DNA from: an uncultured Clostridia bacterium | GTDB taxonomy: Bacteria > Bacillota > Clostridia > Christensenellales > Borkfalkiaceae | NCBI GenBank assembly: GCA_947629675.1 | Contig: CANREM010000005.1 | Location: forward strand, 18,393-82,392 | Length of the DNA: 64,000 bases | Direction of reading: 5' to 3' | Notes under the pieces: model-generated | Databases searched by the model: none | Told to the model about the DNA's origin: nothing | What the model saw: only the letters and a program-made list of their open reading frames with translations | Shown here: positions 39,992 to 58,275 of the stretch, piece by piece | Layout of the letters: the number at the start of each line of letters is the position of its first letter | How positions within the stretch are numbered: position 1 is the stretch's first letter | Position numbers and translations under genes: made by a program

Positions 39992-40067
39992 GCTACTGTG
40001 GCTCAGTCGGTAGAGCGATTGATTCGTAATCAATAGGTCGCCGGTTCAAGTCCGGCCAGTAGCTCCA
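39992..40067 (+). tRNA. tRNA-Thr (anticodon CGT); integration target
   Basis: Cloverleaf: GCTACTG acceptor, GGCTCAGTCGGTAGAGC D-arm, ATTGA-TTCGTAA-TCAAT anticodon arm, GCCGG-TTCAAGT-CCGGC T-arm, encoded CCA. Confidence 0.95.
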
Positions 40068-40070
40068 AAA
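40023..40070 (+). repeat. attL core (3' 45 nt of tRNA-Thr plus 3 nt)
   Basis: ttcgtaatcaataggtcgccggttcaagtccggccagtagctccaaaa is identical to 58228-58275. Confidence 0.9.
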
Positions 40071-40122
40071 GAAATCGGGCAAAATAGGCGAATAGTAGCC
40101 GGTTTTGCCCGATTTCTTCTTT
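40071..40122 (+). terminator. Rho-independent terminator after tRNA-Thr (supplied by the element arm)
   Basis: gaaatcgggcaaaa/ttttgcccgatttc is a 14-bp stem followed by ttcttt. Confidence 0.7.
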
Positions 40123-41106
40123 ACCTCGAAGGTCGAGGCAAAAGGCGTCGGAAAGGTTTTCCCCAAATTTCCCCAAAACGTGAATACCGATTTTGCAAAG
40201 CTCGGTGCCGAACGGTGCCGAGCTTTTCCTTCCGCGAGCGCGGCGGGGGCGACGACGGCGGGCGGCCGCGACGCCTGCGACCGCTCAGCCGGGTGGATGC
40301 GCATCTTCGATCGCCGCCAAAGCCGCATAGACGGAAACGCACGAGCGTGCAGAAAGACGGCCCGTCACGGGCGGCCGTGCCGGTGGCTCATTTAATGGAA
40401 GTTGCTTGGTTGACGTTCAGTCCGCGCGGCGGTGGAGATGCCGACTGACTGTGGCGGGCGTAGACGCATTGCGGCAAGCCAGACGCAGGCAGGCGGCATA
40501 CTACCGCCGCGCGGTGTAGTTCGCGACATCCATTTTTCGAAAATTCGCCTGCTTGCATGGCGAATTTTCGCGAGCTTTTAAATTTTCCCACCTTCTTAAA
40601 TTTAAGTCGTCATTTCTATATGCGACGACTTCCTCATTCTTCCCGAAAATCCACCTGAACGGAGTGAATGGTGAATTTTCGGGCGAGTAAGTTCACACTC
40701 GAGTGTAAGCGTCAGGAGCTTCTGATTTCAAGCCGGCCTCAAGGGCGGCTTCCTTCTTGAAGAGCTTCCAATGACGGCGGTGCCTCGGCACCGCGACCTT
40801 TTTCTCTCGAGGTGAGTGCCCACGCTGGGCACGAGCCGTGATAAGATCTTCATATAAATGTTCTTATATAGAATTCATATCTACTGTGCTACTTTTCGGA
40901 CCGCTACCGTATTACATTTCGGACATGCTTTGTGCTATTTCGCGGACGGCGAAAGTCCGAAATTTATTACGGTGAACGGAGCAAAGGAAACAGCCGCCCG
41001 GGAGAAGCCCGAGCGGCCGTTTTACTGTACTATTTTAAGAGAGGCGATGCTCCTCTCTCTTACTTTTGGTCGGTATTCAGTTCGCCTTGGGGTTACGTGA
41101 AGGGGA
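40123..41106. other. ~1-kb coding-free, hairpin-dense segment (candidate replication origin, packaging region or large structured RNA)
   Basis: No convincing ORF. At least eight stems of 6-14 bp, for example cgaaaattcgcc/ggcgaattttcg (~40537-40570), cccgaaaatccacc/ggtgaattttcggg (~40641-40683) and ccgcgcggcggt/accgccgcgcgg (~40423-40515). There is a very G+C-rich core at 40190-40530. Confidence 0.6.
40158..40180 (+). repeat. 23-bp direct repeat, left copy (candidate integrase arm-type site)
   Basis: tttccccaaatttccccaaaacg is identical to 58107-58129. It contains an internal ccccaaa duplication. Confidence 0.7.
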
Positions 41107-42216
41107 TCATGGCGACCTCCTTCGGCCTATGCCTGGATAGCAATCGCAGGCCTTTCCCGTGCCGATCATGAAGCCGGTGTCGTGGCACTTCTGGCAGCTG
41201 AACACGGGTTTGAGATCTTCCTTCGAGATGCCGAGCTTCCGCATGCGGCGAGAGATCTGGACGGCGAGAGATTTCTTCTTCGCTTCGAGCTTTGCAACTT
41301 CTTTGAGATCTCCTTTCACTTCGGCGCGTGCGATCTCGGGATCGAGTTTCGCATGCTGCGCGTGAAGGTCGTGGTACTTTGGATCTCCCTCGAGGAGTTC
41401 TTGGAATTGTTCTGCCCGGGCGTTTGCTTTGGCCTGCCGTGCCGCATAGAAGCGTTCTCTCTCGGCGCGTTGGTCGGCGGCGTTCGAGGGATCCTTCCCG
41501 GTTTTCCGAGATGCTTCATGCACGGCCTTCTCTTCTTCCTTCTTGTAGGCTTTGTAAGCAGCGCGGAGGAGCTTCTCATTGACTTTATACGAGCTTCTCC
41601 AATGCCCGTTGACGCCTTTGCAGTCCTCGGGCCTGAAGATGAGATCCATTGAGAAGAGGAGCTTGATCGCCTTCTGAACGCTTGCCGGGCAAAGATCGAC
41701 GAGCTTTGCGATTCCTCGGACGGAGCCGTGGAACGCTCCGTCGCCTTTTTCGTTGGTGCAATGCGTGATAAAGAGGCTCAGGACCTTCTTCGCTGCGTCG
41801 GTGAGGTATTCCTCGCGCTCAGAGCCTTTTATGTGGAACTTTGTTGTAAGTATGAAGAAATACATGCGGATATAGCCTCTCTCAAAGACGCGATCATTCG
41901 TTTTATAGGCGGCCCGGGCGGGATCGCTCTTATCCTGCTCGAAGAGGCCCTCGGCGCGGAGATCTTTCATAGCCGATGCTATTGTTGATTTTACATAGCC
42001 GAGTTTATTTCCAAAGCCTTGAAAAGAAAGGTGGACGGCCGCATCTGGATCGTCCTTTGTCCTTGAGAACGAATAAATATAGCCTCTTACCGCTACGAGA
42101 GACGTTCTTACGTGCTTTCCGTTTACTTTTTTCCTGAAAAAAGCATACGGAATGCGGATACATCCGCTCTGAGCGCGTTCTACGGGGTCTTTTTGTTCTA
42201 TGTACTGCTGTTGCAT
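41107..42216 (-). CDS. Replication-initiation/helicase-loader-like protein (wHTH domains plus a DnaI/DnaC-N-like zinc module)
   Basis: 369 aa. The C-terminal coiled segment ends in CQKCHDTGFMIGTGKACDCY, which resembles the N-terminal Zn module of clostridial DnaC/DnaI-like loaders. GCGGAGGA RBS. Confidence 0.5.
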   Translation of the reverse strand: MQQQYIEQKDPVERAQSGCIRIPYAFFRKKVNGKHVRTSLVAVRGYIYSFSRTKDDPDAAVHLSFQGFGNKLGYVKSTIASAMKDLRAEGLFEQDKSDPARAAYKTNDRVFERGYIRMYFFILTTKFHIKGSEREEYLTDAAKKVLSLFITHCTNEKGDGAFHGSVRGIAKLVDLCPASVQKAIKLLFSMDLIFRPEDCKGVNGHWRSSYKVNEKLLRAAYKAYKKEEEKAVHEASRKTGKDPSNAADQRAERERFYAARQAKANARAEQFQELLEGDPKYHDLHAQHAKLDPEIARAEVKGDLKEVAKLEAKKKSLAVQISRRMRKLGISKEDLKPVFSCQKCHDTGFMIGTGKACDCYPGIGRRRSP

Positions 42217-42236
42217 GAGGATCCTCCGCTTGGATC

Positions 42237-42458
42237 TTATTTGACGAGATAGAGTTTCCCGTGTTCTACGGCCACGAGGCCGAGGGGGATGAGCTTTTTA
42301 TCGAGGTTATAGCGCACGGTGGATCTTGTGCATCCGACGGTGCGTGCGATGAGGTTATAATCGAGGCGACGCCTTTTGCCGCCCTTGAGGCTTTCTTTCA
42401 GAAAGCGATAGATCTTGCTGGCGGTGCTTTCGATGAGGAGCGCGTTCTGATCTGTCAT
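42237..42458 (-). CDS. Small winged-helix DNA-binding protein
   Basis: 73 aa containing LIARTVGCTRSTVRYNL (HTH-like). ATGA overlap with the upstream ATPase stop. Confidence 0.5.
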   Translation of the reverse strand: MTDQNALLIESTASKIYRFLKESLKGGKRRRLDYNLIARTVGCTRSTVRYNLDKKLIPLGLVAVEHGKLYLVK

Positions 42459-44710
42459 TTTTGCCCTCCTTTCTCCGAGTTCTCTTCAGGAGGCTCGGAT
42501 TCGAGATAGTATTTATCAAGTTTTTGGAAGTGGTAGGATCCTTCCTGCCTGTGTTCGCTCATCTTGGCATGCGTGGTGGCAAAGCAAGGGACGTCATCTA
42601 TGCCGGTGGGCGATTTGAGGGTCTTCTCGTTGTAGCTGTCCTGCCATGCGTCGGTCTGGAATACGTTCGCATAGTTCTTTCGGTTGGACATGAACAGGCT
42701 GAACTGCTCGAGCGCGACGTCTTTGGTGCCCGCCTGCACGGTCCCTTTGACCTTGTAGCCTCCAAAGACGGAGACGGCGCGCTGATAGTGATCGTAGATC
42801 TTTTTCCGGACGACGTTCTGAAGGAACCATAGAAGCAGCGTCTGATCGCCGCGGTTGAATGCTGCCTCATCGAAGAGCTTCCCGAGGAGCTTCTCGGAGA
42901 GTAGATAGATCGCTTCTTCGATGGCAAAGAAGGGCAAGAGGATCTTTTGCTTTCCCTTCTCGCGGAGGACGATGATGTCGCCGAGTTCGACGAGATCCGC
43001 ATTGAGGCTCGAGGCGCGCTGTTCGTCGGCGATGATGCGTAAAAAGGCATTATAGGCGACGGTCGCGCTGTGTCCTCTCATCTTGATGTCGAGGTTGAAG
43101 AGATCGTTGAGGATGTTTGCTTCCTCATCCTCGACCTTCTTCCCGGCGCGGTCGAACTGATTCCCGCGCTCCTTGCCGAATTCCGTGAACGCTGCGACGC
43201 CGTATTCGAAGGCGTCCTTGTATTTGTCTTGAGGATCCACCTTCTTGCCCGGGCGGAACATGTCGAAGTGAACGATGTGTGCCATGCGCGATCTGTCGAT
43301 CGGAGAGGGGTCTTTTCGGTAAAAATCATCGTCCCATTGGATCTCGTTTCCGCGGTCCTGCAGATCGTCATCCATTCTGATCGGGAAATTCGAGAGAAGC
43401 ATCGAGGGCGTGAGCTGCAGCCTGTAGAGCTGCGAGAAGTCATGGATAGCGTCGTAGATTGTTTCTTTTCCGAGGCCGCGGTCGTAGACTGTGGGCCAGC
43501 GTTTTGTGTCATATCCGAAAAGGATGTTGTCGAATCGGATCCCGTATTTTCGGGAAAGCATTTTGCGGTGTATTCTGACTTGATATGGATCGTTTTGATA
43601 GGCTTTGTGGGCCTCACAGATCTTGTCGGCCCATTTTCGCACGTGTGCGAGATTATAGAGTTCATGCTTCTTTGCGCCGCGCTGTATGACCTTTTCGAGC
43701 GTGATCCAAGGGAAATTCGGGAACTTGAGCTGTATCTCGCGCATCGCCTTTTTGCACATGTTTCTGAAGAGTTTATCGTAGGTGATCGCGGTAGACGCGA
43801 GAAAGGTCGTTTTTCCGGAGCGCATCGGGGCTGTGACAATGAAGAAGATCGGCCGCTCCTCGAGGAATTTTCGGAACGATTTCTCCTGCTTCTCGAGGCG
43901 GCTGAAACCGATGCTCTTTCGCCAGCGTGTGAAGATCCAGAGGCCAAAGGGGATCCAGATCCAAATGGGGAGGAATCTCACGGCGACGGTGACGTCGTAG
44001 ACAAGCTTGATGAGCTGTACGCCGATAGACGTGACGTCGGCATGAGACGCATAGTGGAAGAGCCAAGCGACGAATTCAAGCCCCACCGTAAAGCCGTTGA
44101 AAAAGAATACGGCGATAAGGATGAGGGCCTTTTTATAGGCATGTTCTCCAAAGAAGCGGAAAAAGCGTTTGACAAACCTTTTTGCCGGCATGTAGGCTCT
44201 GTCGTAGAACCTCATGAAGCATCTGAGCGGTTTCGATTGTCCGGCATAGCGGTTATTTTGCGCCTTCACTTGCGAGCTGATCGCCAGCCCCACCGGGACG
44301 GCGACAAGTCCTCCGAGCAGGATGATCGCTACGCTCGAATAGAGCAGGATCCTGCCGATGAGCCTCAGATACGCCAGCATGTTGGCGGGCGATATGAGTG
44401 TGAGGCCGATATTTTTGAATACGTTGACGAATTCGCTCCATACCTGCGGGATCTCCGTCGTCATGGCGGAAGAAAATTGCGACGACGTGGAAGTTGTCGC
44501 GCCTGCGATGGATCCTATTTCATGGAATACATCGCGGAGGGATTCGAAGAAACGTATGTAGATCTGAGGGACCCGGACGGATCCAAGGACGATGATTTCT
44601 GCGAGGATCGCGAGTGCCATGGCGTGGAATACCTTCGGCCGCCACGCCGGATAAAATGGCATTGCATGCGCTGCATGTTGTTCTTTTTTTCGTGACTTGA
44701 GATGCTTCAT
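42455..44710 (-). CDS. Polytopic-membrane P-loop NTPase (candidate assembly/DNA-translocation ATPase, distantly Zot/pI-like)
   Basis: ~290-aa N-terminal region with about six TM helices, then Walker A FFIVTAPMRSGKTT, a candidate Walker B VAAFTEFGKERG, and a following RIIADEQRASSLNADLVEL segment. The ATG at 44710 overlaps the stop of the 30-aa ORF. Confidence 0.6.
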   Translation of the reverse strand: MKHLKSRKKEQHAAHAMPFYPAWRPKVFHAMALAILAEIIVLGSVRVPQIYIRFFESLRDVFHEIGSIAGATTSTSSQFSSAMTTEIPQVWSEFVNVFKNIGLTLISPANMLAYLRLIGRILLYSSVAIILLGGLVAVPVGLAISSQVKAQNNRYAGQSKPLRCFMRFYDRAYMPAKRFVKRFFRFFGEHAYKKALILIAVFFFNGFTVGLEFVAWLFHYASHADVTSIGVQLIKLVYDVTVAVRFLPIWIWIPFGLWIFTRWRKSIGFSRLEKQEKSFRKFLEERPIFFIVTAPMRSGKTTFLASTAITYDKLFRNMCKKAMREIQLKFPNFPWITLEKVIQRGAKKHELYNLAHVRKWADKICEAHKAYQNDPYQVRIHRKMLSRKYGIRFDNILFGYDTKRWPTVYDRGLGKETIYDAIHDFSQLYRLQLTPSMLLSNFPIRMDDDLQDRGNEIQWDDDFYRKDPSPIDRSRMAHIVHFDMFRPGKKVDPQDKYKDAFEYGVAAFTEFGKERGNQFDRAGKKVEDEEANILNDLFNLDIKMRGHSATVAYNAFLRIIADEQRASSLNADLVELGDIIVLREKGKQKILLPFFAIEEAIYLLSEKLLGKLFDEAAFNRGDQTLLLWFLQNVVRKKIYDHYQRAVSVFGGYKVKGTVQAGTKDVALEQFSLFMSNRKNYANVFQTDAWQDSYNEKTLKSPTGIDDVPCFATTHAKMSEHRQEGSYHFQKLDKYYLESEPPEENSEKGGQK

Positions 44711-44799
44711 GCGCCCACTGCTCCTTGGCACGAAAAGACGATATATCCGATGAGGATGATGAGGCCGAGCGTGCCGAGGATCTTGAGCGCGAGCTTCAT
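44707..44799 (-). CDS. 30-aa hydrophobic peptide (not in the ORF track)
   Basis: MKLALKILGTLGLIILIGYIVFSCQGAVGA. AAAGGAGAAAAA RBS, and its stop overlaps the ATPase ATG (ATGA). Confidence 0.6.
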   Translation of the reverse strand: MKLALKILGTLGLIILIGYIVFSCQGAVGA

Positions 44800-44809: not shown

Positions 44810-45127
44810 TTAGGCAAAAAATTCTTCGCAGAACTCTTTGAACTGCTTTATCGTTCGACAAGCTTTCTGACAGACGGCTTGTCCGTTATATGCGGTGAAC
44901 TGATAGTAGTTTTCGCTCGAGCGGATGAGGGCGATGAAGGCTTCGAGCTTCGAGTTTTGCTTTGGGATCCTTACGATCTGTGTCAGTGCCTTTGGATCCG
45001 TTCGGCTGTAGGATGGCTCGAAGATCTTCACGCCGTCATCTTTCATGTTCATTTTGATGAATATCACGCCGCCCTTCACGGTGCGCCTCTCGAAGCCCGG
45101 CGGCGTATAATAGCTTTGGATCTTCAT
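44810..45127 (-). CDS. Hypothetical soluble 105-aa protein
   Basis: ORF abutting the upstream stop (tga-g-atg). No TM and no recognised motif. Confidence 0.5.
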   Translation of the reverse strand: MKIQSYYTPPGFERRTVKGGVIFIKMNMKDDGVKIFEPSYSRTDPKALTQIVRIPKQNSKLEAFIALIRSSENYYQFTAYNGQAVCQKACRTIKQFKEFCEEFFA

Positions 45128-45128
45128 C

Positions 45129-45704
45129 TCAAAAATAGATACGGTCTTGGGAAAGTTCCAGCCCGGTGAGCTGATGGGGCGTCACGCGGATCTGAATGCT
45201 GTATTTGATCGCTTCGTTGTAAGACGTTACGGTTAGGATATAGAGAGGGACCTCCGGATCGGGAGGATCGCTCAAAAGGTTTATCTCTTCGTCCGGATAG
45301 AGCATGGAAAGGATCTCCTCGATCGTGTTATCCGCGCTGAATAATGTCTTGAGCGTAAAGCTGCTTTCAGATTTTTGGATCTCAAAGAGAGATTCGACGC
45401 CCTTCTCACCGCTCCAGCGTTTGATCGCCGTCCCGACGGTATATTCGAGATCTACTTCCGGATTCGGAGTGATCGCGACGGTATAGTCGCGTTTCTTCGT
45501 CTCGAATGGATACTTTACCTTGAATGTCTCTTCTGTATCTTCTTCGACTTTGACTTCTGCCTCGGACCCCATGATCGATTCACCGTCATAGACGATGTAG
45601 AATGTCTTAAAATCTTCGTTGAAGTGATCGGTGAAGTGCCAGATGAAGAGGACGGCTGCCGTTACGACGAGCAGCGTTGCAAGCACTGCAAAAAATTTCT
45701 TCAT
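45129..45704 (-). CDS. N-terminally anchored membrane protein, unknown function
   Basis: 191 aa. MKKFFAVLATLLVVTAAVLFIW is the TM. AGGAG RBS. Confidence 0.6.
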   Translation of the reverse strand: MKKFFAVLATLLVVTAAVLFIWHFTDHFNEDFKTFYIVYDGESIMGSEAEVKVEEDTEETFKVKYPFETKKRDYTVAITPNPEVDLEYTVGTAIKRWSGEKGVESLFEIQKSESSFTLKTLFSADNTIEEILSMLYPDEEINLLSDPPDPEVPLYILTVTSYNEAIKYSIQIRVTPHQLTGLELSQDRIYF

Positions 45705-45722: not shown

Positions 45723-46673
45723 TTATGCAGGTTTGTCGGTGTCCCATACCGCTCTGAGCGTCCCGCTTCCATAGATGGTGATGCTTGTCCCGGCGGCGTA
45801 AGTCTTTTCCCCTGATGCCCAATGAAGGAAAGTGTGACCGCTCCATTGCGGCGCGTTCGGGAGAGTGATTTTTTGGCCTTCCTTTGCGGACATGGGTGCC
45901 ACTTTTTCGCTCCCAGTATAGCTTCCGAGGTCAAAGGTCACGGTGTAAGTGGCAAGAGGGATCGGATCGAGCGATTTGATCTTCTGTATCTGGATCCCGT
46001 TTTTGTATGTCGTGTCCGGGGTCTTGAAGATCTTCAGCGAGATCCTGTAGATGCCGTCATATTTCTCCTTGAGGGAGATCTCTTTTTCTGCCGCTTCGAA
46101 GGCGGTGTTGCTTCCGAGAAGCTCGGTATAACCGAGAGAGCCTTCTTCGGATCTTCCTTTTTCGATGTGGAATTTGTCGCCGGCATAGAGTTCGAGGTCA
46201 ACTTGATAGACACTATAGTCGGAGGTCGAAGCTGCAAGATCCTGCTCGAGCAGAAAGACGCCCGGCGCATTCTGGATCTCCTCGAGCGTGCCTTTTCCTT
46301 CTCCTACGATGTACCATAGATTCGGATCGTCGTAGACGGTGCGGCCGTAAAGTGTAAGGTCCTTTTTGAGCTTTGTCGTGAACTTATAAGGCGTCGTATA
46401 GCCTTTGTCTGTGTACCACCCGTCGACGGCGGTATCCTCGGTTAGCTCTGGTTCGAAGGGATCCTCGATCCTCTCCCCATAGAGGTAAGCCTTTTCCTCT
46501 GTCTTTGTCTTTTTGCCGTCGAGGACCCATGTTACACTCACGCGCTCCGGAAGCGATGTGTTGCGCTTCACGAGCCTTACGATCAGGGCGGTGATGAGCG
46601 AGAGTAGGATGACGGCGATAAGTACGATCAAAACGATGCGGATCGCTTTACTTTTCTTCTCACTCTTGGACAT
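45723..46673 (-). CDS. N-anchored surface protein with a CBM-like beta domain and one Listeria-Bacteroides (InlB B-type) repeat
   Basis: TM near the N-terminus. WYIVGEGKGTL...LELYAGDKFHI parallels the C-terminal domain of the 568-aa protein. The C-terminus is TYTVTFDLGSY...GHTFLHW. Start at 46673 with a GGAGG RBS. Confidence 0.65.
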   Translation of the reverse strand: MSKSEKKSKAIRIVLIVLIAVILLSLITALIVRLVKRNTSLPERVSVTWVLDGKKTKTEEKAYLYGERIEDPFEPELTEDTAVDGWYTDKGYTTPYKFTTKLKKDLTLYGRTVYDDPNLWYIVGEGKGTLEEIQNAPGVFLLEQDLAASTSDYSVYQVDLELYAGDKFHIEKGRSEEGSLGYTELLGSNTAFEAAEKEISLKEKYDGIYRISLKIFKTPDTTYKNGIQIQKIKSLDPIPLATYTVTFDLGSYTGSEKVAPMSAKEGQKITLPNAPQWSGHTFLHWASGEKTYAAGTSITIYGSGTLRAVWDTDKPA

Positions 46674-51326: not shown

Positions 51327-53029
51327 TCATATACCTCCTTCCTTTTCGCCTGCTCGAGCGTGACATCGCGGAGCTTCAGAAGCTCTGCCGCTGCGATCGC
51401 GCTCGGCCCATCATCGCCCTGATCTCCCGCATACGGGGAGATGGATCTCACCTTGGTAATGTCGAGGTGCGACGTTTCACCACCCAACGTCATGAAGGTG
51501 TAGAGCTTGATCTTATAGACGCCGTCCTGGCCGGACTTCAACACGATGTTGTGGTCGTTGCCGTCATCGTCCTCGAAATAGTCCCAGCCGCTCCAGAGGT
51601 CGTTTCGGCCAAATGCGACCGTCCAATCGGTGTTGTATGTTATCTTGAACTGATCGCCCGCATAGAGCGTCAGCTCTATGGTGAAGAGGTTGTCCGCATC
51701 TTCAGTGTTATCTCTCTTCATGAGGAGCTTGTTATGCGTCCACGCGTTGCTCCTGAGCGTTCCGTTGCCTGCACCCAGCACATACCATGTCCGGTTGTCG
51801 AGTAGGCTGTTTTTCGTCCATTTTGCGGTGTATTTGACGCTGGCCGTAACGGCGATATGTTCGCCCGCCTGCTTATAGACGCTGCCGACCTTCCATCCGT
51901 GGAAGGTATAGCCCGTCCATGTGGGCGGAGTGGGAAGGTCTACGCCCTCGCCCTGCCGCACCGTTATGGGCGCGACCGTTTCCCGGCCCGTGTACTCACC
52001 GAGATCGAAGGTGACCGTGTACTTGATGATCTCCGTCCACTCAGCAGTGGCCGTCACCGTCTCGGTGGGGGTGAACCGCTCGTGAGGTTGCTTGAGATCC
52101 CCGGCGATACGCCAGCCGTCGAAGGTGTGATCTTCCCATTCGGGAGCCTCGGGGAGTTCGAAGTCTGAACCTTGCTGAACCGTGACGGCTGCGACGGTCT
52201 CTTCGCCGTCATAGTCGCCGAGGTCGAAGGTGACCGTGTATTTGACGATCTCTGTCCACTCGGCGGTGGCCGTCACCGTCTCGGTGGGGGTGAACCGCTC
52301 GTGAGGTTGCTTGAGATCCCCGGCGATACGCCAGCCGTCGAAGGTGTGATCTTCCCATTCGGGAGCCTCGGGGAGTTCGAAGTCTGAACCTTGCTGAACC
52401 GTGACGGCTGCGACGGTCTCTTCGCCGTCATAGTCGCCGAGGTCGAAGGTGACCGTGTATTTGACGATCTCTGTCCACTCGGCGGTAGCCGTCACCGTCT
52501 CGGTGGGGGTGAACCGCTCGTGAGGTTGCTTGAGATCTTCGCCGATGCGCCAGCCGTCGAAGGTGTGATCTTTCCATTCTGGGGCCTCCGGGAGTTCGAA
52601 GTCAGAACCTTGCTGAACCGTGACGGCTTCGACGGGTTCCCCGCCGTCATAATCACCGAGGTCGAAGGTGACGGTGAAGTTCACGACCGGAAGGACACCC
52701 TCCCATACGGCTAACGCCGTGACGTCTTTCGTCACGGTGTAGTTATCCCCGGCATCGGCCATGTCGCCGCCGATGCGCCAACATGTGAAGGTGTGATCTT
52801 TCCATTCTGGAGCCTCCGGGAGTTCGATCTCCTCGCCTTCTTTGACTTTGATAGGATCGATGCTTTCATCTCCGTCATACTCGGCGAGGTCGAAGTTCAC
52901 CGTGCATGTCTTGTTTGAGAGCTTTTTGAAGAGGCCCGTGCAGAGGCCTGCGATCAAAAGGGCGACTGCGATGAGGACGATCACCATGATCACCACGCCG
53001 ACCTTGCTCTTGGAATGCGATCTGCTCAT
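51323..53029 (-). CDS. N-anchored surface protein with ~6 Listeria-Bacteroides (InlB B-type) repeats and a C-terminal CBM-like domain
   Basis: Repeats of ..YTVTFDLGDYDG.E.V..V.VQQGSDFELPEAPEW.DHTFDGWRI.... Start at ATG 53029 with an AAGAGGA RBS. Confidence 0.7.
   Translation of the reverse strand: MSRSHSKSKVGVVIMVIVLIAVALLIAGLCTGLFKKLSNKTCTVNFDLAEYDGDESIDPIKVKEGEEIELPEAPEWKDHTFTCWRIGGDMADAGDNYTVTKDVTALAVWEGVLPVVNFTVTFDLGDYDGGEPVEAVTVQQGSDFELPEAPEWKDHTFDGWRIGEDLKQPHERFTPTETVTATAEWTEIVKYTVTFDLGDYDGEETVAAVTVQQGSDFELPEAPEWEDHTFDGWRIAGDLKQPHERFTPTETVTATAEWTEIVKYTVTFDLGDYDGEETVAAVTVQQGSDFELPEAPEWEDHTFDGWRIAGDLKQPHERFTPTETVTATAEWTEIIKYTVTFDLGEYTGRETVAPITVRQGEGVDLPTPPTWTGYTFHGWKVGSVYKQAGEHIAVTASVKYTAKWTKNSLLDNRTWYVLGAGNGTLRSNAWTHNKLLMKRDNTEDADNLFTIELTLYAGDQFKITYNTDWTVAFGRNDLWSGWDYFEDDDGNDHNIVLKSGQDGVYKIKLYTFMTLGGETSHLDITKVRSISPYAGDQGDDGPSAIAAAELLKLRDVTLEQAKRKEVYE
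51900..52860 (-). repeat. 219-bp (73-codon) tandem repeat array; the central copies are near-identical
   Basis: The unit starting cgggagcctcgggg recurs at 52141 and 52360. By eye, 52045-52545 is essentially two perfect copies, with diverged copies on both sides. Confidence 0.8.
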
Positions 53030-53046
53030 TTTTTCCTCTTTGAGAA

Positions 53047-54219
53047 TCAAATAAAATCTATATCACCGGTCCCGATATTTACGCTGCTTGCAAAAGTGCC
53101 GAAAGAACTGTCGTTGAGAAATATGCTTACTTCTTTTTCTTGTTTCTTTCCATTGACTGTTGTCTCGATCTTATATCTCCATGCACCTTGTATCGGGCAA
53201 ATCTGCCTGAAGTTTTGCTTAAAGGCTGCCCAATCTGTGGGGGGTACTGTGAGGATGAAAAGCTTCGTGAAGTCAAAGCCGTTAAGTGTGGCGATTTTAC
53301 CAGATCCTTCATCGGTATGAACATTGTCATAGATCACTGATCCAGTATAGACTGCTCCGCCGCCTTCAAATAGATTGTTACTCATTGCTTTGAAACTAAC
53401 TTTTACATCTGTTACCGTTGCCTCTTTGGTATACGTTTGCGTGAGCGGCGTGGTCACTGTGAACACATAGTTGCCTTTCTTGCTGCCGTCGGGCGTATAA
53501 TAATCCAATAACTCTTGGTATGTCTTTGTATACCCGGGGAAGTTTACGCGTGACTGTTTATCTCTTCCGTTTCCATTCAGCTCCCACGTGAGATTTGCGT
53601 CTGGATATGAGGAATTCGTGTAGACGATCTTTGCCGTCGGATAGGATTCTTCATCATACCGTTGCACATAGTTCACGGTGCGAGGGGCACTCTTCACGGA
53701 GGCATTTGTCTTGATCTGCGCCGTAAGCTGAAGCTGCTCGCCGAATGCTTGCAAGCAGGAGAGTGTCGCCGAGAGGGTATCCTCGCCCACTTGAATTGTT
53801 ACATATTCGGAAACTTCTTTGCCTGACGCCCATTCACTTTGAGGATCCTTCCAAACGAGCTGCCAATCGAGCTTGCCATCTTCCGCAGGTTTGCCGTCGT
53901 CGGTTCCGACTGTCGCCGTGACCTGCATCGCTGTCTCTGCTATGGACATGATGCCGTATTGAGCGTAAAGCTTTCGAGGAATGATGCTCGTGGTGAGTTG
54001 GATCTTGGCATTGTCTTTTTCGGGTGCTTCGATCTCGAGGCCGCCTTCTGCTTCGCCGGTGGGCGTCTGATCGCCCCAGTTCGAGGGTTTCGCCTTGCCC
54101 TTTGCAAAAAGCTGAAGCAAGCCGAGAGTGAGCGCAAAGACCATAAGGAAGAGAATGACGTAAATGGTGATCCGCATTATGCGATTCGCTTTTGCGTCTC
54201 TGTTCGAGCTGTTTTTCAT
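53047..54219 (-). CDS. N-anchored membrane protein, paralog B
   Basis: 390 aa, paralogous to the product of 49765-50940. AGGAG RBS. Confidence 0.65.
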   Translation of the reverse strand: MKNSSNRDAKANRIMRITIYVILFLMVFALTLGLLQLFAKGKAKPSNWGDQTPTGEAEGGLEIEAPEKDNAKIQLTTSIIPRKLYAQYGIMSIAETAMQVTATVGTDDGKPAEDGKLDWQLVWKDPQSEWASGKEVSEYVTIQVGEDTLSATLSCLQAFGEQLQLTAQIKTNASVKSAPRTVNYVQRYDEESYPTAKIVYTNSSYPDANLTWELNGNGRDKQSRVNFPGYTKTYQELLDYYTPDGSKKGNYVFTVTTPLTQTYTKEATVTDVKVSFKAMSNNLFEGGGAVYTGSVIYDNVHTDEGSGKIATLNGFDFTKLFILTVPPTDWAAFKQNFRQICPIQGAWRYKIETTVNGKKQEKEVSIFLNDSSFGTFASSVNIGTGDIDFI

Positions 54220-54369
54220 GTATAATCTCCTGCGTTTAATGACCGCCGTCTATTTTTTCTTTGAATTCTCCCGCTCCCTTTGGGGCCGCCTGCGCGGCCC
54301 CTCCGGGAAATAAGGAGGAATTTATGGATGCCGAGGTGGAACTTCTCGGCGCGGAGGCTATGATACATG

Positions 54370-54678
54370 CTATCTCTTCTCGAGGGGGATCACCTCATCG
54401 TTGAAAAGGATCTCCGTACTCGTGAGATGCACGTTGTCGTTCAGGATCAAGTAGATCGTCTCGATGACGTTCCCGATCTCCTGCACGGTGGATGAAGGGC
54501 AGCCGATCGCAGCTTTGATAATGTTGCGGTGGGAGATCTCAATATCGCCAAGGCGGTGATATAGTTTCTTCAAGGGGAGCAGCAGTTTTTGCAGCTCCTC
54601 TTTTTCGCTGTCTTCAAGGATGAGATCCTTCTTCCATTGTTTGACCCGTCTTTCCTTTATCACTCTCTGAGGATACAT
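54370..54678 (-). CDS. Hypothetical 102-aa protein (early gene of the long operon)
   Basis: ORF with a GGGAGA RBS. No recognised motif. Confidence 0.5.
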   Translation of the reverse strand: MYPQRVIKERRVKQWKKDLILEDSEKEELQKLLLPLKKLYHRLGDIEISHRNIIKAAIGCPSSTVQEIGNVIETIYLILNDNVHLTSTEILFNDEVIPLEKR

Positions 54679-54715
54679 GTTGAATTCTCCCTTTCCTTTA
54701 TCATTCTCTGAGGTG

Positions 54716-54895
54716 TCATCGACGAATTACCTCATCCGTCTTTGTGATATCGCCTTTTACAAGAAGTTCGAGTAGCGCAAGCAAAGCGTGTTTATTTTGA
54801 TAGCAACCTTTCTTTATTCTGACGTAAAGCTCTTCTCGCGTCTGCCTGAGTTCCCCGTCGGTAACACTCCATTTTGCTTTTATATTTTCCTGCAT
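54716..54895 (-). CDS. 59-aa protein, candidate Cro/antirepressor-position gene (not in the ORF track)
   Basis: MQENIKAKWSVTDGELRQTREELYVRIKKGCYQNKHALLALLELLVKGDITKTDEVIRR. GGAGGAGAGAA RBS. It is the first gene divergent from the XRE repressor. Confidence 0.5.
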   Translation of the reverse strand: MQENIKAKWSVTDGELRQTREELYVRIKKGCYQNKHALLALLELLVKGDITKTDEVIRR

Positions 54896-55070
54896 TTCTC
54901 TCCTCCTCTTTGAAGCGATATGTGGATCTCAGCGACAGTGAATTTTTGCTCTATTTGCAACTGCAAACAGTATATCATAAACTGTTTGCAACTGTCAATA
55001 GATTTTGTAAATTTATTTTTTGTGTGGGTAAAAATTATTGCTAAAATTTAATTAAGTAGAGGTGTTTACA
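54896..55070. promoter_or_regulatory. Divergent promoter/operator region (genetic switch)
   Basis: TTTGCAACTG occurs at 54954-54963 and 54985-54994. The inverted repeat GCAAACAGT/ACTGTTTGC lies at 54963-54971 and 54981-54989. AT-rich. Confidence 0.6.
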
Positions 55071-55481
55071 ATGGTTAACGAGAAATTGAACGCTTTGATT
55101 AAATTAGCGCAAGGAGATCGAAGTCAAAATCAATTCGCCTTGCACTGTGGCGTGAACTCTTCGACTATAACGCAAGTTCTTCATGGTAGACATAATCCCT
55201 CACCCGAGTTTTTGAAAAAAATCGCGGATAGGGCATATAATGGTGTCACTTTTGAGATGCTTCTTGAAGCATCATTTTCCGCTTTTTCAGACGAACCATT
55301 TTCCCTAAGGCCAAACGGAGTTGTAGAGTCACCCGATCTCTCCTTAGATGAGCGTGAACTCATAGATGCTTTTCGTTTGATGCGTCCCGCGCAACAAGCC
55401 CTTCTATTAAAGACCGCTCAAATGTGGAGTACAACTTCATTTGGATTCGAAGAGCAACCATATCGTAAAAATGATAGCTAA
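55071..55481 (+). CDS. XRE-family repressor (CI-like position)
   Basis: N-terminal HTH QNQFALHCGVNSSTITQVLHG. AGAGG RBS upstream of ATG 55071. Confidence 0.75.
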   Translation: MVNEKLNALIKLAQGDRSQNQFALHCGVNSSTITQVLHGRHNPSPEFLKKIADRAYNGVTFEMLLEASFSAFSDEPFSLRPNGVVESPDLSLDERELIDAFRLMRPAQQALLLKTAQMWSTTSFGFEEQPYRKNDS

Positions 55482-55495: not shown

Positions 55496-55930
55496 ATGGC
55501 AAAATTATCTTCTATCACCGATGACGTTTTGAACGTTATTGATTCGATTAAGAATTCTATTGCAAAAAATAATTCCGATGATTCATTACTCCCAATTCGA
55601 TTGGATGCGTATTTTTCATGGAAAAAATCTTGTTGCGACGAATGCCATTTTGTTGATGTTGATATTGAGAATGAGTATGGATATCCTCCTTTCCATGCCA
55701 AAGGCAATTTATTGATCCAGGATACCCTTTATTATTTTCGCAACGACACTGTTTTATCGCGTAAATTTAATCCTTTCAAAATGAGAATTAGATTTAATTA
55801 TTTTAATCCACCCAAAAATGCAGCCCCTGAACTTGTTGGAATTTGGTATCGATATTTAGACGAAATGGGGTACTTCAATTCTTTCAAGTATTTCTTAGAA
55901 AATATTTATCTGACAAAGTATGTGGATTAA
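55496..55930 (+). CDS. Hypothetical 144-aa protein co-transcribed with the repressor (lysogeny cargo)
   Basis: Strong GGAGGGGAGCAG RBS. Low G+C, Cys/His cluster CCDECH, no recognised family. Confidence 0.55.
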   Translation: MAKLSSITDDVLNVIDSIKNSIAKNNSDDSLLPIRLDAYFSWKKSCCDECHFVDVDIENEYGYPPFHAKGNLLIQDTLYYFRNDTVLSRKFNPFKMRIRFNYFNPPKNAAPELVGIWYRYLDEMGYFNSFKYFLENIYLTKYVD

Positions 55931-55979: not shown

Positions 55980-56387
55980 TCAAATTCGGTCGAGAAGTTC
56001 TTCTGGTTTAATCGCGGGGACCTTGCTTCCGACGAAATCTTTGATATTCCGCGTAACAATGAATTCGGCGCGGATGCGTTTTGCGGTCACGCTTTGCAAG
56101 GCGTCCTCGTAGTCTTTGAGGGGAAGGAGCGTCGCTTTTTTGAGATCGTCTTCTTTGAGATCTGCAACGTCGAAGATAAGGGTGAGTTGAGATAAGATCT
56201 CCCGGACGCGATCCGCATCAAGCTCCTTTCGCATGATATAGACGATATTGGGAATTGATAAGGCGGAGATACTGCCAAGCAGCTTTTTTACTTCGCAGAG
56301 CTTGAAGATCTTCGTGGCAGACTCCACATATGGCTGTCTGTTCATAAGGACGTCGAGCAAAACGTTCGTATCAATCAATATTCGCAT
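55980..56387 (-). CDS. PIN-domain toxin (VapC-like)
   Basis: MRILIDTNVLLD... N-terminus with conserved acidic residues. It overlaps the antitoxin 3' end. Confidence 0.8.
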   Translation of the reverse strand: MRILIDTNVLLDVLMNRQPYVESATKIFKLCEVKKLLGSISALSIPNIVYIMRKELDADRVREILSQLTLIFDVADLKEDDLKKATLLPLKDYEDALQSVTAKRIRAEFIVTRNIKDFVGSKVPAIKPEELLDRI

Positions 56388-56604
56388 GTTTTTTCGCCCT
56401 CTCCTCACGCATGGCGCGTTCATCGTAATTTCCCTTTACAACGCCAACGAGCGAGTCGGTGAGGAAAGAGACGGTTTTTTCATGCGAAATAAGCCGTGCC
56501 ACCTCTTTGCCATTGCGTAGGATCACGACGTCGCCCCCTGTTTGAACATATTGCAGATATTTCCCGAAATTGTTCTGCATTTCGGTCGCAGTTACCGTGG
56601 TCAT
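56371..56604 (-). CDS. Phd/YefM-type antitoxin
   Basis: TVTATEMQNNFGKYLQYVQTGGDVVILRNGKEVARLI. Confidence 0.8.
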   Translation of the reverse strand: MTTVTATEMQNNFGKYLQYVQTGGDVVILRNGKEVARLISHEKTVSFLTDSLVGVVKGNYDERAMREERAKKHANID

Positions 56605-56763
56605 AGTATAGTACCTCCAAACATATTACCTAACTATAGTATATCCTATTTTAGGGAAAGTGTCAACATATTAGCCAATTTTTGTCGTCAAAAATTGACT
56701 AAATTTTGGAGTCTAATTCTGTTTTATACTTTTTCCAAGAAAATTTTCTCAAGGAGAATGTAT

Positions 56764-57039
56764 ATGGCAAAAGAAGAAATATTTAGAGAAAAAGTGATTG
56801 AGCTTTACATGAAGGCGGCCGAACTAATTGCATTGTTGGATCCGCCAACTGAGTTTCAGAGGCTCATGCTCTACCAAGATGGTGCCGATGAGCCGACGGT
56901 GAGCGGAGAAATTGGGACGCATGAAGTACAAATGCTAAAAAAAAGATATTTGAACGAACAAAGATTTCTGGGCGTTTTGGATCCACTTCTACAAAAGTCA
57001 TGGAGAACTCAGTGGAAGAGAAAATATTCCCGGGCATGA
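56764..57039 (+). CDS. Hypothetical 91-aa protein upstream of the integrase (excisionase-position gene)
   Basis: AAGGAGA RBS. Its stop overlaps the integrase ATG (ATGA). No recognised Xis motif. Confidence 0.45.
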   Translation: MAKEEIFREKVIELYMKAAELIALLDPPTEFQRLMLYQDGADEPTVSGEIGTHEVQMLKKRYLNEQRFLGVLDPLLQKSWRTQWKRKYSRA

Positions 57040-58106
57040 AAGAAGAGGCGGATAATGAGGCAAAATCGGTATTTTTGGAATTTTCAAATAAGGAGTTATC
57101 AAAAATGCCGAAATTTTTTAGATCGGAATTCAGACTGCAGGGAGGCGAGGTCGCACACGCAAGAAAAAAGAAAAATGGAACATTTGAGATCAGATACCGA
57201 AGAAATGGGATCAATCTCTCAGTAAGTGCGAAATCTTTGGAGCTTGCCAAAGAGCGTTTTATTAAAAAGCTTTGTGAGCTGCAAGATGAAGGAGGGCTCG
57301 GCGACGTCACCTTTAAGGACTATGCCGAGCAATGGCTGGAGATCGTTAAGAAACCGCAAATAAAGGATGATACGCTTCACAACTACCGACGGATGCTTTG
57401 CCTTTACGTCTACGACCGCATGGGGGAGAAGCTTCTGAAGGAGATCCGGCCACTTGACGTTCAGAAGCTCTTGAATGAGATCCTGGAGTGTGGGCTTGAA
57501 CGCACGGCGGCCAACGTCTATGTCATCATCAAAGCGATCTTCGAATTTGCTGTGGCCGATGACATCATCGCAAAGTCCCCGATGCGGCTCATCAAGAAGC
57601 CGAGGCATGAGATGAAGCACGGCGTCGCGCTGTCTGTCGAAGAGGAGCGCGCCTTCGTGCGGGCATGTGCCGAGGGAAGTTCACCGTGCAGGTATGCGTA
57701 TTTGCTGTTGCTCTTTACGGGGATTCGCCGCTCAGAGCTTGCCTCGGCGGAGATCTCGCCGGATTGGGTCACGGTGGTAACATCCAAAACGCGCAAGGGT
57801 GCGGGCGTGAAAAAGCGAAAGATCCCCGTGTCACCGATGTTGCGCCCCTTCATGCCATACATGACGAAAGAGAACCTCAGCGTAAGCCCCGATCTCTTGA
57901 CGAGGGGGATCGCTGCGTTTCTTCCCGGCCACCACCTTCACGATCTGCGGCATACGTTCATAACGCGTTGTCAGGAGTGTGGGATCTCGCGTGAACTCGC
58001 GTCTCTTTGGGCAGGACATCGTCCCGATAATACCGTTACGAGCAATGTCTATACGCATTTAGGTGAGAGATTTCAGCTTGAGGAGATCAAGAAATTAAAA
58101 TATTGA
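57036..58106 (+). CDS. int: Tyrosine-type site-specific integrase
   Basis: N-terminal SAM-like domain, and a C-terminal catalytic region with LLFTGIRRSE...HDLRHTF...WAGH....VTSNVYTH (the R-H-R-H-Y pattern). Confidence 0.9.
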   Translation: MKEEADNEAKSVFLEFSNKELSKMPKFFRSEFRLQGGEVAHARKKKNGTFEIRYRRNGINLSVSAKSLELAKERFIKKLCELQDEGGLGDVTFKDYAEQWLEIVKKPQIKDDTLHNYRRMLCLYVYDRMGEKLLKEIRPLDVQKLLNEILECGLERTAANVYVIIKAIFEFAVADDIIAKSPMRLIKKPRHEMKHGVALSVEEERAFVRACAEGSSPCRYAYLLLLFTGIRRSELASAEISPDWVTVVTSKTRKGAGVKKRKIPVSPMLRPFMPYMTKENLSVSPDLLTRGIAAFLPGHHLHDLRHTFITRCQECGISRELASLWAGHRPDNTVTSNVYTHLGERFQLEEIKKLKY

Positions 58107-58129
58107 TTTCCCCAAATTTCCCCAAAACG
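58107..58129 (+). repeat. 23-bp direct repeat, right copy
   Basis: Identical to 40158-40180. It begins immediately after the integrase stop codon. Confidence 0.7.
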
Positions 58130-58227
58130 GGGTGATTTCTTCGATACACAAAGCAAATTCGTGCATAAAACAGATCTATTTTGCTGTATAAAATGGAAGC
58201 TCCTGCATAAACGGATCTTTAATCGGG

Positions 58228-58275
58228 TTCGTAATCAATAGGTCGCCGGTTCAAGTCCGGCCAGTAGCTCCAAAA
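58228..58275 (+). repeat. attR core (duplicate of the tRNA-Thr 3' part)
   Basis: Identical to 40023-40070. It lacks the tRNA 5' half, so it is not a functional tRNA. Confidence 0.9.

Follow-up and report, generated by a model that had tools for sequence, protein, structure and literature searches.

What is an 18.2-kb segment that sits in a tRNA-Thr gene like a temperate element, yet shows none of the genes expected of a tailed phage or a conjugative element, and how could it spread? We addressed this question in a window of 64,000 nucleotides (the whole stretch of DNA analysed; all coordinates refer to it) from an uncultured Clostridia bacterium. A sequence-only reading had described an element at 40023-58275 with no recognisable capsid, terminase, tail or conjugation genes, and had proposed a non-tailed phage lineage resembling Inoviridae or Plasmaviridae/pleolipovirus-like layouts, possibly an undescribed group.

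The integrated element and its genes

We first looked at whether the element was intact. A tRNA-Thr(CGT) gene was found by ARAGORN and Rfam, and an exact 48-nt direct repeat of its 3' part bracketed the element. The description given by the sequence-only reading was confirmed, with a few corrections indicated below. The features of the element are as follows.

39992-40067 (+): tRNA-Thr (CGT), the integration target (Rfam tRNA, 74 bits).
40023-40070 (+): attL, the 48-nt core, 3' part of the tRNA.
40071-41106: structured non-coding region and candidate origin, with a hairpin at 40071-40116, four copies of the CGAAAATTCGCC palindrome, three copies of the CTACnGTnnTACnTTTCGGAC motif and a 23-nt repeat at 40158-40180.
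41107-42216 (-): 369-aa replication initiator-like protein with a wHTH domain (Pfam HTH_36, phrog_8102/678) and a C-terminal domain like the N-terminal part of DnaC/DnaI-type loaders (NCBIfam PRK06835 N-terminal part, 6.7e-12); no HUH motif family was detected.
42237-42458 (-): 73-aa small wHTH protein (weak HTH_20 hit); 4-nt overlap with the ATPase gene.
42455-44731 (-): ATPase with a polytopic N-terminal membrane domain and a divergent P-loop NTPase; public gene callers give 751 aa from 44710, whereas the ORF (758 aa) runs to 44731.
44707-44799 (-): 30-aa hydrophobic peptide overlapping the ATPase start, supported by a gene call and its translation; its position matches the ~50-aa TM peptide family found upstream of the ATPase in 25 loci.
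44810-45127 (-): 105-aa soluble protein, no known family in Pfam, PHROGs or NCBIfam.
45129-45704 (-): 191-aa N-anchored protein, member of a conserved family (78 loci), no PDB relative.
45723-46694 (-): 316/323-aa N-anchored protein with a Listeria-Bacteroides (Flg_new) repeat (Pfam, 1e-16).
46660-46887 (-): 75-aa single-TM peptide.
47028-47264 (-): 78-aa ORF called by public gene callers, coding status uncertain.
47261-47767 (-): 165/168-aa soluble helical protein, no known family in Pfam, PHROGs or NCBIfam.
47782-49764 (-): 652/660-aa type-I membrane protein with a signal-like N-terminus and a C-terminal anchor.
49765-50940 (-): 391-aa N-anchored protein, paralogue of 53047-54219, of a conserved family (72 loci, often duplicated) with a Big_2-like sequence motif in the ectodomain.
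50989-51326 (-): two single-TM peptides (54 aa at 50989-51153; 58 aa at 51150-51326).
51323-53050 (-): 568/575-aa N-anchored protein with five Flg_new repeats (Pfam, 8e-35), encoded by 219-nt tandem repeats.
53047-54219 (-): 390-aa N-anchored protein, paralogue of 49765-50940.
54216-54895 (-): three small soluble ORFs at the operon start (50, 102 and 59 aa), candidate regulators with no known family in the libraries searched.
54896-55061: divergent control region, with a leftward promoter-like site at 54998-54969 and TTTGCAACTG repeats around it.
55062-55481 (+): XRE-family repressor candidate (Pfam HTH_3 and PHROG repressor families).
55496-55930 (+): 144-aa protein with no function assigned from Pfam, PHROGs or NCBIfam, predicted to be co-transcribed with the XRE gene.
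55980-56604 (-): type II toxin-antitoxin pair, PIN toxin (55980-56423; PIN_3, 2e-22) and PhdYeFM antitoxin (56371-56604; 7e-11).
57000-58106 (+): tyrosine integrase (phrog_1, 3e-47; Pfam Phage_int_SAM_3, Phage_int_M and Phage_integrase).
58107-58129 (+): 23-nt repeat identical to 40158-40180, candidate integrase arm site.
58228-58275 (+): attR, the second copy of the 48-nt core.

Just inside each end, the 23-nt exact repeat had been missed by the sequence-only reading; none is expected by chance, and these repeats are likely integrase arm sites. The PIN/PhdYeFM pair had not been mentioned either. In the control region, the strong promoter-like site (TTGACA-18-TGnTATACT), located on the minus strand, faces the XRE gene.

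The minus-strand operon runs over 13.8 kb from 54895 to 41107. Eight of its 18 gene junctions are 4-nt overlaps, and all but one of the rest are gaps of 1-48 nt. Hydropathy confirmed the membrane topology that had been described, namely the single-TM peptides of 30, 54, 58 and 75 aa, the 652/660-aa protein with its N-terminal signal-like segment and C-terminal anchor, and the 751/758-aa protein in which about 4 N-terminal TM segments are followed by a Walker A motif (APMRSGKT). However, there are five N-anchored proteins and not four (191, 316/323, 390, 391 and 568/575 aa), and the 50-, 59- and 102-aa products at the operon start are not membrane proteins. Downstream of the operon, the ~1-kb non-coding stretch 40107-41106, next to the initiator gene, folds as single-stranded DNA with z = -12.2 against shuffles and holds several repeated palindromes.

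We then searched all ORFs against Pfam, PHROGs and NCBIfam and found no capsid, terminase, tail, lysis, relaxase or T4SS gene. A degraded tailed prophage is therefore very unlikely, since no remnant of any tailed-phage gene was found, all ORFs are intact and tightly coupled and the att repeats are perfect; the integration next to a tRNA and the repressor/integrase pair are merely features shared with ordinary prophages.

A family of elements in gut Clostridia

To know whether the element was an orphan, we built a profile of the ATPase. It found 1,201 clusters (50% identity), 616 of them at E<1e-30, and relatives at 347 loci among 185,579 GTDB species genomes, nearly all from gut Clostridia/Christensenellaceae, including the isolate Pumilibacter intestinalis. 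At least 160 further loci were found in metagenomes. The element thus belongs to a large, so far unannotated family of 12-18-kb circular mobile elements.

Comparison of the loci showed that the membrane-protein/ATPase cassette, co-directional and with conserved membrane topology, is the conserved part of the family. The type-I membrane protein is the second most conserved family gene (115 of 165 loci), always upstream of the ATPase and on the same strand; its 55-member profile found no Pfam or PDB relative. In contrast, the replication and integration modules are exchanged around the cassette. A G2P-type HUH Rep of the inovirus/plectrovirus Pfam family lies next to the ATPase in 89 of 161 loci, a RepB-OBD+SF3 Rep was found in 24 loci, and a wHTH initiator in 5. 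The non-HUH Rep type of the present element lies downstream of the ATPase in 4 other loci. The absence of an HUH Rep, which the sequence-only reading had held against canonical inoviruses, is thus a peculiarity of this small clade and not of the family. For integration, an IS30-like rve DDE integrase, homologous to plectrovirus SpV1 ORF3, was found in 72 loci and a tyrosine integrase in 12.

Two relatives assemble as circles, one of 13.0 kb with a 141-bp terminal overlap and one of 14.5 kb with a 55-bp overlap, and a 14,040-bp unit is repeated in perfect tandem in the family loci L014/L015. Together with the module swapping, the inovirus/plectrovirus-type Reps, the DDE integrase and the patchy distribution of the relatives, these circles make a fixed chromosomal surface-protein island that merely looks mobile unlikely, and we consider this reading largely refuted.

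The ATPase was studied in more detail. In an alignment of 64 sequences, K307, E517, N524, D543 and R572 are invariant and T308 is nearly invariant; the Walker A Lys and the Walker B-like Glu are invariant. The AlphaFold (AF2) model is confident (pLDDT 90) but matches no solved structure, and no relative was found in Pfam, PHROGs, NCBIfam, PDB or by Foldseek. It matches no FtsK, HerA, VirB4, VirD4 or terminase structure, the best HerA hit having an E of 0.55 and a TM of 0.13-0.21. The only significant structural match is to one unnamed 269-aa viral protein in BFVD (E 5.7e-4). Every membership test for Inoviridae (Zot/pI), Plasmaviridae (L2 proteins) and Pleolipoviridae (VP8) was negative, which also makes a canonical inovirus or plasmavirus very unlikely. 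The interpretation of the sequence-only reading is therefore supported only in part: the element is an intact tRNA-integrated one without detected hallmark genes of tailed phages or conjugative elements, but membership of these viral groups is not supported and its viral nature is unproven.

Possible modes of transmission

We then considered how such an element could be transmitted. The gene order in typical relatives (Rep, small soluble proteins, N-anchored proteins, a type-I membrane protein, TM peptides, then the ATPase) parallels that of Ff phage. The layout also parallels that of the L2 plasmavirus as described by ICTV, about 12 kb, circular, with all ORFs on one strand, overlapping reading frames and tRNA integration (PMC12662186). 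However, nothing shows particles, packaging or even excision for this copy, and contigs from four other samples show it integrated at the same site. Viral catalogues hardly contain the family, with 2 contigs in IMG/VR and 1 record in INPHARED, which is a chromosomal fragment, although this absence is biased because such catalogues require known viral markers. No protein resembles a known coat, spike or morphogenesis protein by sequence. Moreover, an enveloped particle has to cross a Gram-positive wall, and no wall hydrolase is encoded.

An unconventional integrative conjugative element, although less likely, remains a real rival. In this view the polytopic ATPase would be a new kind of DNA translocase or coupling protein, the N-anchored Ig-like/Flg_new proteins and the type-I protein would form a mating bridge or adhesin layer, and in most relatives the HUH Rep would double as the relaxase. 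All cassette proteins are membrane or surface proteins with adhesin-type domains, and Ig-like and Flg_new ectodomains are equally typical of adhesins used in cell-cell contact. An HUH Rep lies directly next to the ATPase in most loci, and HUH/Rep-type relaxases are used by Gram-positive ICEs of the ICEBs1/Tn916 type. The absence of detected lysis genes, the presence of the family in genomes rather than in viral catalogues, and the combination of integrase, toxin-antitoxin and repressor, which is also the ICE layout, point in the same direction. In contrast, no relaxase, T4CP, VirB4, VirB6, VirB8/TcpC or wall hydrolase family was hit in any ORF, the confident ATPase model matches no FtsK, HerA, VirB4 or VirD4 structure, and no plasmid among the 72,556 PLSDB records carries the ATPase. 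Finally, the present element and its clade have no detected HUH protein and yet keep the whole cassette, which is hard to reconcile with relaxase-dependent ssDNA transfer.

Another reading, which we find rather doubtful, is an integrative rolling-circle/theta plasmid-like element (IME type), whose cassette would be cargo or a host-interaction device (surface remodelling, adhesion, exclusion or a small secretion system driven by the ATPase) and whose spread would depend on helper phages, helper ICEs or transformation. Indeed, circular forms with Rep and integrase are what an integrative plasmid needs, the surface proteins carry repeat expansions typical of host-interaction proteins, and no structural homology to any virion protein was found. 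However, the cassette and not the replicon is the invariant part of the family across more than 1,000 divergent lineages, with fixed gene order and strand, a pattern of a transmission or morphogenesis module rather than of cargo. It takes up about 70% of a 13-kb genome, leaving no room for other functions, and it lies under the control of the candidate repressor, as inferred from sequence.

Altogether, the analysis establishes the integration between exact att cores, the integrase with its candidate arm sites, the repressor candidate facing the promoter-like site, the addiction module, the compact operon of membrane proteins, ATPase, wHTH protein and initiator-like protein next to a highly structured region, the conserved cassette with exchanged modules and the circular relatives, whereas the mechanism is inferred. 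Our best, though tentative, reading is a temperate, non-lytic, capsid-less virus-like element. The repressor would keep the operon silent; on derepression, the integrase would excise a circle through the att cores and the initiator would replicate it from the structured region. The ectodomain proteins and the type-I protein would be inserted into the cytoplasmic membrane, and the membrane-embedded ATPase would power assembly and export of the DNA as a capsid-less, non-lytic particle. This could be a membrane-derived vesicle or a filament studded with the ectodomain proteins, which would then act as receptor-binding and entry proteins. In this view, the element would do functionally what plasmaviruses, pleolipoviruses and inoviruses do, with proteins that have no detectable relationship to theirs.

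Layout of the element and its surroundings

We first looked at whether an intact element was indeed present at the tRNA-Thr gene, and the following features were found (positions are those of the window):

39992-40067, tRNA-Thr(CGT), placed by both ARAGORN and Rfam
40023-40070 and 58228-58275, an exact direct repeat of 48 nt corresponding to the 3' end of the tRNA
40107-41106, non-coding DNA with repeated palindromes and iteron-like motifs
40158-40180 and 58107-58129, an exact 23-nt repeat (TTTCCCCAAATTTCCCCAAAACG, itself a 10-nt tandem), about 90-120 nt inside each end
54895 down to 41107, minus strand, a run of ORFs
54998-54969, minus strand, a near-consensus promoter-like site (TTGACA-18-TATACT with a TG extension)
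55062-55481, an XRE-type HTH protein
55980-56604, a PIN/PhdYeFM toxin-antitoxin pair
57000-58106, a tyrosine integrase

The integrase matched phrog_1 (3e-47) and the Pfam families Phage_int_SAM_3, Phage_int_M and Phage_integrase, and the element thus has the tyrosine integrase adjacent to a direct repeat of the tRNA 3' end that characterizes tRNA-integrating tyrosine-recombinase islands. The toxin-antitoxin pair has the adjacent, overlapping genes of the type II VapC/PIN with Phd/YefM systems (PIN_3, 2.1e-22; PhdYeFM_antitox, 7e-11; overlap at 56371-56423). The promoter-like site faces the XRE gene and lies among repeated TTTGCAACTG motifs. The 23-nt repeat, of which no occurrence is expected by chance, is read here as a pair of candidate arm-type binding sites of the integrase. 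When folded as single-stranded DNA, the non-coding stretch reached −232.6 kcal/mol, compared with −167.4±5.4 for shuffled sequences (z = −12.2). In the minus-strand run, eight of the 18 gene junctions are 4-nt overlaps and all but one of the others are gaps of 1-48 nt. Hydropathy analysis confirmed the membrane character of the operon products, and the genes publicly called on identical contigs agreed with the ORF set. The sequence-only reading had described a temperate element at tRNA-Thr, with a compact operon of mostly membrane-associated products and without recognizable capsid, terminase, tail or conjugation genes; apart from small corrections, this observation was confirmed.

Only a few of the proteins were recognized by Pfam, PHROGs and NCBIfam. 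These are the integrase, the XRE protein, the PIN/Phd pair, two N-anchored proteins with Flg_new repeats, a weak wHTH and an initiator-like protein. The latter matched HTH_36 and phrog_8102/678, and its C-terminus resembles the N-terminal part of the DnaC/DnaI-type loader PRK06835 (6.7e-12). In contrast, nothing among the ORFs scanned resembled a capsid, portal, terminase, tail, lysin, holin, relaxase, coupling protein, VirB4 or FtsK. The 568/575-aa surface protein contains Flg_new repeats encoded by 219-nt tandem repeats (51879-52907), and since two 144-nt stretches one repeat unit (219 nt) apart are 100% identical, recent expansion or ongoing variation in repeat number is suggested. Inspection of the anchored proteins revealed neither type IV pilin-like N-termini nor LPXTG sorting signals.

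The window element was found at more than 99.97% identity in several other ENA assemblies, at the same tRNA site, and no circular or empty-site form of it was found. In one of these samples (contig L088, positions 14722-15289, compared with 39400-39989 of the window) the sequence beyond the tRNA-Thr differs, a membrane transporter-like ORF replacing a gene for a 229-aa protein. We considered recent transposition, but as the element, its site and the right flank are the same, this is probably a strain-level rearrangement upstream of the tRNA. The apparent loss of the XRE gene in two samples was a gene-calling artefact, the DNA being identical.

The same tRNA-Thr seems to have received a second insertion. 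The T-arm core GGTCGCCGGTTCAAGTCCGGCCA occurs four times, at 40036, 58241, 58434 and, with one mismatch, 61220. The third and fourth copies share about 60 nt and bracket a 2.8-kb islet of low GC content (0.40-0.42; 58390-61269), which holds a 365-aa ORF that could not be annotated (58577-59674) and a C5 DNA methylase (59706-60773). It looks like an integrase-less island, possibly a restriction-modification system, accreted in tandem. The chromosomal part of the window also contains a THF (tetrahydrofolate) riboswitch (8581-8677, 66.6 bits) and tandem repeats: units of 291 nt and 69 nt at about 20.1-20.9 kb (20087-20866), and short GAGGAACC(C/T)GT(C/T)-type units at about 33.1-33.6 kb (33065-33612), consistent with a low-complexity acidic, proline-rich linker.

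Relatives of the element in gut Clostridia

A word-indexed search with the 751/758-aa ATPase of the operon gave only 14 relatives and suggested an orphan. This was a sensitivity artefact; indeed, an exhaustive profile search found 1,201 clusters at 50% identity, of which 616 had E<1e-30, nearly all of them 700-800 aa long. In GTDB contigs, with one genome per species, 347 loci encode a relative, and the named hosts are overwhelmingly gut Clostridia (Christensenellaceae/Christensenella and 'Clostridiales' MAGs), including the cultured Pumilibacter intestinalis CLA-AA-M10, in which the element lies in NZ_CALPCH010000018.1 at about 16.5-38.4 kb. At least 160 more loci came from metagenome contigs. 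Full-text literature searches found no description of this family, although the literature covered was incomplete and a prior description cannot be excluded.

We then clustered the ORFs of 165 loci, in 161 of which the ATPase was recovered. On the same strand and in a conserved order upstream of the ATPase lie the family of the 652-aa type-I membrane protein (115 loci), the 191-aa N-anchored family (78 loci), the 390-aa N-anchored family (72 loci, 106 copies), further N-anchored families and a TM peptide of about 50 aa. Membrane topology is conserved within each family. Several families of small, very basic (Lys/Arg-rich) soluble proteins flank the ATPase gene in many relatives (for example at 1844-2200 of locus L058 and 9265-9738 of locus L111) and are candidate DNA-condensing or nucleoprotein components; the window has a non-homologous 105-aa ORF at that position.

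The modules around this cassette vary. A Rep of Pfam family REP_ORF2-G2P is found directly downstream of the ATPase in 89 loci (51.6 bits against a cutoff of 27.8 in locus L001, and also found in loci L002 and L003), a RepB-type origin-binding domain fused to an SF3 helicase is present in 24 loci, and the wHTH initiator of the window is present in 5. For integration, an IS30-like rve DDE integrase is present in 72 loci and tyrosine integrases in 12. A soluble family of about 145 aa (cluster c6, for example at 5664-6077 of locus L040) co-occurs with the G2P-type HUH Rep (30 of 43 loci) but never with the SF3-helicase Rep (0 of 19) or the wHTH initiator (0 of 3), and may be a replication accessory or ssDNA-binding protein.

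Two relatives are whole contigs whose ends overlap exactly, by 141 bp in L060 (a 13.0-kb circle) and by 55 bp in L094 (a 14.5-kb circle), and each carries the cassette, a Rep and an rve integrase. In a Christensenellaceae MAG (CAJUSA010000004.1, loci L014/L015), a 14,040-bp unit running from the regulators to the rve integrase is repeated head-to-tail at 100% identity, which is either a true tandem prophage array or a circular element mis-assembled into a chromosomal contig.

We also looked for the family in the catalogues of mobile elements. IMG/VR gave only two relatives, INPHARED one and PLSDB none. The INPHARED record (MT835493.1, locus L001), labelled 'UNVERIFIED: Bacteriophage sp.' and coming from a human faecal study, was considered as evidence of packaging and rejected, since it is a bacterial chromosomal fragment (NrdD, thioredoxin reductase-like, UmuC-like) carrying an integrated relative and a DndC-like PAPS reductase/DUF4007 cluster. 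These results show that current catalogues miss the family, but say nothing either way about virions.

The hallmark ATPase and comparison with known systems

The ATPase has about four N-terminal TM segments followed by a P-loop domain. In an alignment of 64 sequences, K307 (the Walker A lysine), E517 (after a hydrophobic strand, in ITExGKERGN), N524, D543 and R572 are invariant, and T308 is nearly so. No Pfam, PHROG or NCBIfam model matched it or 64 diverse relatives, except for sporadic weak matches to generic P-loop families, and sequence and profile searches of PDB were empty. A first AlphaFold2 model built from 14 sequences was poor (pLDDT 69) and its Foldseek result meaningless, whereas the model built on 64 sequences is confident (pLDDT 90.1, pTM 0.83). 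Even so, Foldseek against PDB returned nothing below E = 0.3, the top rows being weak matches to AAA+ proteins and to HerA. Against BFVD there was a single significant match, to an unnamed 269-aa viral protein, A0A894JLK1 (E 5.7e-4, TM 0.55 normalized to the target). Profiles of the 652-aa, 390-aa and 191-aa families and of the c6 family found nothing credible in PDB, and member-by-member scans of the 652-aa and c6 families found nothing credible in Pfam; the 390-aa family shows a Big_2-like sequence motif.

We next asked whether the element belongs to a known group. For tailed phages (Caudoviricetes), Pfam and PHROGs searches of all ORFs of 50 aa or more gave no large terminase, portal, HK97-type major capsid or tail family.

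The Tubulavirales (Inoviridae, Paulinoviridae, Plectroviridae) share with the family a gene-order logic (Rep, small proteins, a type-I membrane adsorption-like protein, small TM proteins, then a membrane ATPase, as in the M13 annotation), a structured intergenic region and a chronic, non-lytic lifestyle, which is inferred here. Most relatives carry a Rep of REP_ORF2-G2P, a family named after plectrovirus ORF2 and inovirus gpII, and the profile of the rve integrase present in 72 loci matched plectrovirus SpV1 ORF3 (1.7e-29). However, the defining pI/Zot ATPase, an N-terminal P-loop domain followed by a TM segment, is absent: neither the window protein nor any of 64 family members matched Zot, and hhalign with M13 pI and Propionibacterium phage B5 Orf8 aligned only 13-15 Walker A columns, with a probability below 10%, although single-sequence templates limit the sensitivity of this and the other hhalign comparisons. 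Moreover, the topology is reversed, the membrane domain being N-terminal and polytopic, and genomes are 2-3 times larger, with several large N-anchored proteins. The window element has no HUH Rep, its own Rep matching only HTH_36 and O-like initiator families, and it uses a tyrosine integrase instead of the IS30-like DDE transposase of Plectroviridae. Tubulavirales have a small single-TM major coat protein and a filamentous ssDNA virion; in the window element four TM peptides of 30-75 aa are present, none of which matched a coat family in PHROGs. SpV1 ORF1 (715 aa), considered as a possible homologue of the ATPase, is instead a signal-plus-anchor protein with no similarity, its topology being the same as that of the 652-aa protein.

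With Plasmaviridae (Acholeplasma virus L2), the points in common are a temperate habit with integration in a tRNA gene by its own recombinase, a roughly 12-kb circular genome with virtually all ORFs on one strand and overlapping, coupled reading frames, the lack of capsid genes, large signal-peptide protein(s) (envelope proteins in L2) and small membrane proteins, non-lytic release (inferred here) and a Bacillota-lineage host (PMC12662186; L13696 annotation). Plasmaviridae share no proteins with other viruses except the integrase, and profiles of 16 of our clusters against the six-frame translation of L2 gave nothing significant, with no match better than E = 0.02 (about 8 bits); the same profiles found nothing in phage B5. 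The ATPase profile gave nothing relevant with L2 ORF1 by hhalign, and no comparable polytopic ATPase is annotated in L2. L2 has a dsDNA genome and an enveloped virion and replicates with host DnaA from two origins, whereas most relatives here use HUH Reps, and its host is wall-less, whereas most hosts here are walled Clostridia.

In Pleolipoviridae (for example HRPV-1), a conserved block of membrane proteins, with a type-I spike carrying a signal peptide and C-terminal anchor, small membrane proteins and a P-loop ATPase, is likewise combined with different replication modules and, within one family, different genome types; they are non-lytic and integrative members exist (FJ685651 annotation; PMC5867852; PMC7547991). 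Their hosts, however, are archaeal and VP8 is a soluble 343-aa ATPase, with which hhalign aligned only 22 columns around Walker A (probability 0.4%). No similarity was detected for the other proteins, the VP4 spike and the membrane protein VP3 being compared without structures.

Gram-positive ICEs and AICEs (Tn916/ICEBs1-type T4SS; actinomycete FtsK-like TraB elements) have in common with the element and its relatives the integrase, repressor and toxin-antitoxin architecture, membrane-anchored proteins (for transfer, in the ICEs) and a membrane ATPase, HUH/Rep-type initiators that can serve as relaxases, and a non-lytic habit, which is inferred here. Nevertheless, Pfam, NCBIfam and PHROGs gave no relaxase, VirB4, T4CP, VirB6, VirB8/TcpC-like protein, CHAP/lysozyme hydrolase or FtsK_SpoIIIE domain (the latter also absent from 64 relatives of the ATPase), and the modelled ATPase fold matched none of their solved ATPases, the best HerA/FtsK-superfamily match having E 0.55.

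Possible modes of transmission

Taken together, what these data establish is an intact, tRNA-integrating element, under the control of a candidate repressor, that belongs to a large family whose invariant part is a membrane-protein/ATPase cassette, whose replicon and integrase are interchangeable and whose members exist as 13-14.5-kb circles. That the cassette is the transmission machinery is an inference from sequence, as are excision, particles and DNA export. A conserved structural or morphogenetic module with swapped replication modules is the pattern seen in virus families such as Pleolipoviridae (PMC5867852; PMC7547991). The cassette fills most of a 13-kb genome, no lysis genes were found and the layout parallels both Ff phages and plasmavirus L2, three points that argue for a non-lytic, capsid-less, membrane-assembled particle. 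We favour this reading, but only tentatively. The proposal of the sequence-only reading, that the gene layout resembles Inoviridae or plasmavirus- and pleolipovirus-like viruses and may represent an undescribed group, was only partly supported.

The main alternative is an unconventional conjugation-like system, which adhesin-type ectodomains and the Rep adjacent to the ATPase would fit. It is a real rival that we consider less likely, and three things count against it: no T4SS or FtsK-like component was found, the ATPase model does not fold like any known DNA translocase and the clade of the window keeps the cassette without any HUH protein. An integrative plasmid whose cassette is cargo appears somewhat less likely still, as it fits poorly with the cassette being the conserved core.

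In the favoured view the element would work like known capsid-less temperate viruses, from which it differs by the negative results for Zot/pI, L2 proteins and VP8. There is also a substantial chance, although less than even, that it is something categorically new. The polytopic ATPase and its co-conserved membrane proteins would then constitute a previously unknown DNA-export or virion-morphogenesis machine, defining a new high-rank lineage of capsid-less, non-lytic bacterial viruses or an entirely new mode of horizontal DNA transfer, widespread in human and animal gut Clostridia and invisible to current virus, plasmid and ICE callers.

Gut Clostridia such as Christensenellaceae are health-associated and poorly tractable, and their mobile elements are largely unknown. 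With more than 1,000 divergent ATPase lineages, this family carries none of the markers on which virus, plasmid or ICE detection tools rely and is thus missed or mislabelled in current catalogues, and the cultured carrier P. intestinalis CLA-AA-M10 makes the question of its spread directly testable. Whatever its mode of spread, the hallmark ATPase is confidently predicted to be a new fold variant with no characterized relative. If the element is a virus, it extends capsid-less membrane viruses, known from archaea and wall-less Mollicutes, to walled gut bacteria and would supply a new hallmark gene for finding them; if it is a transfer system, it is a new route of gene flow in the gut.
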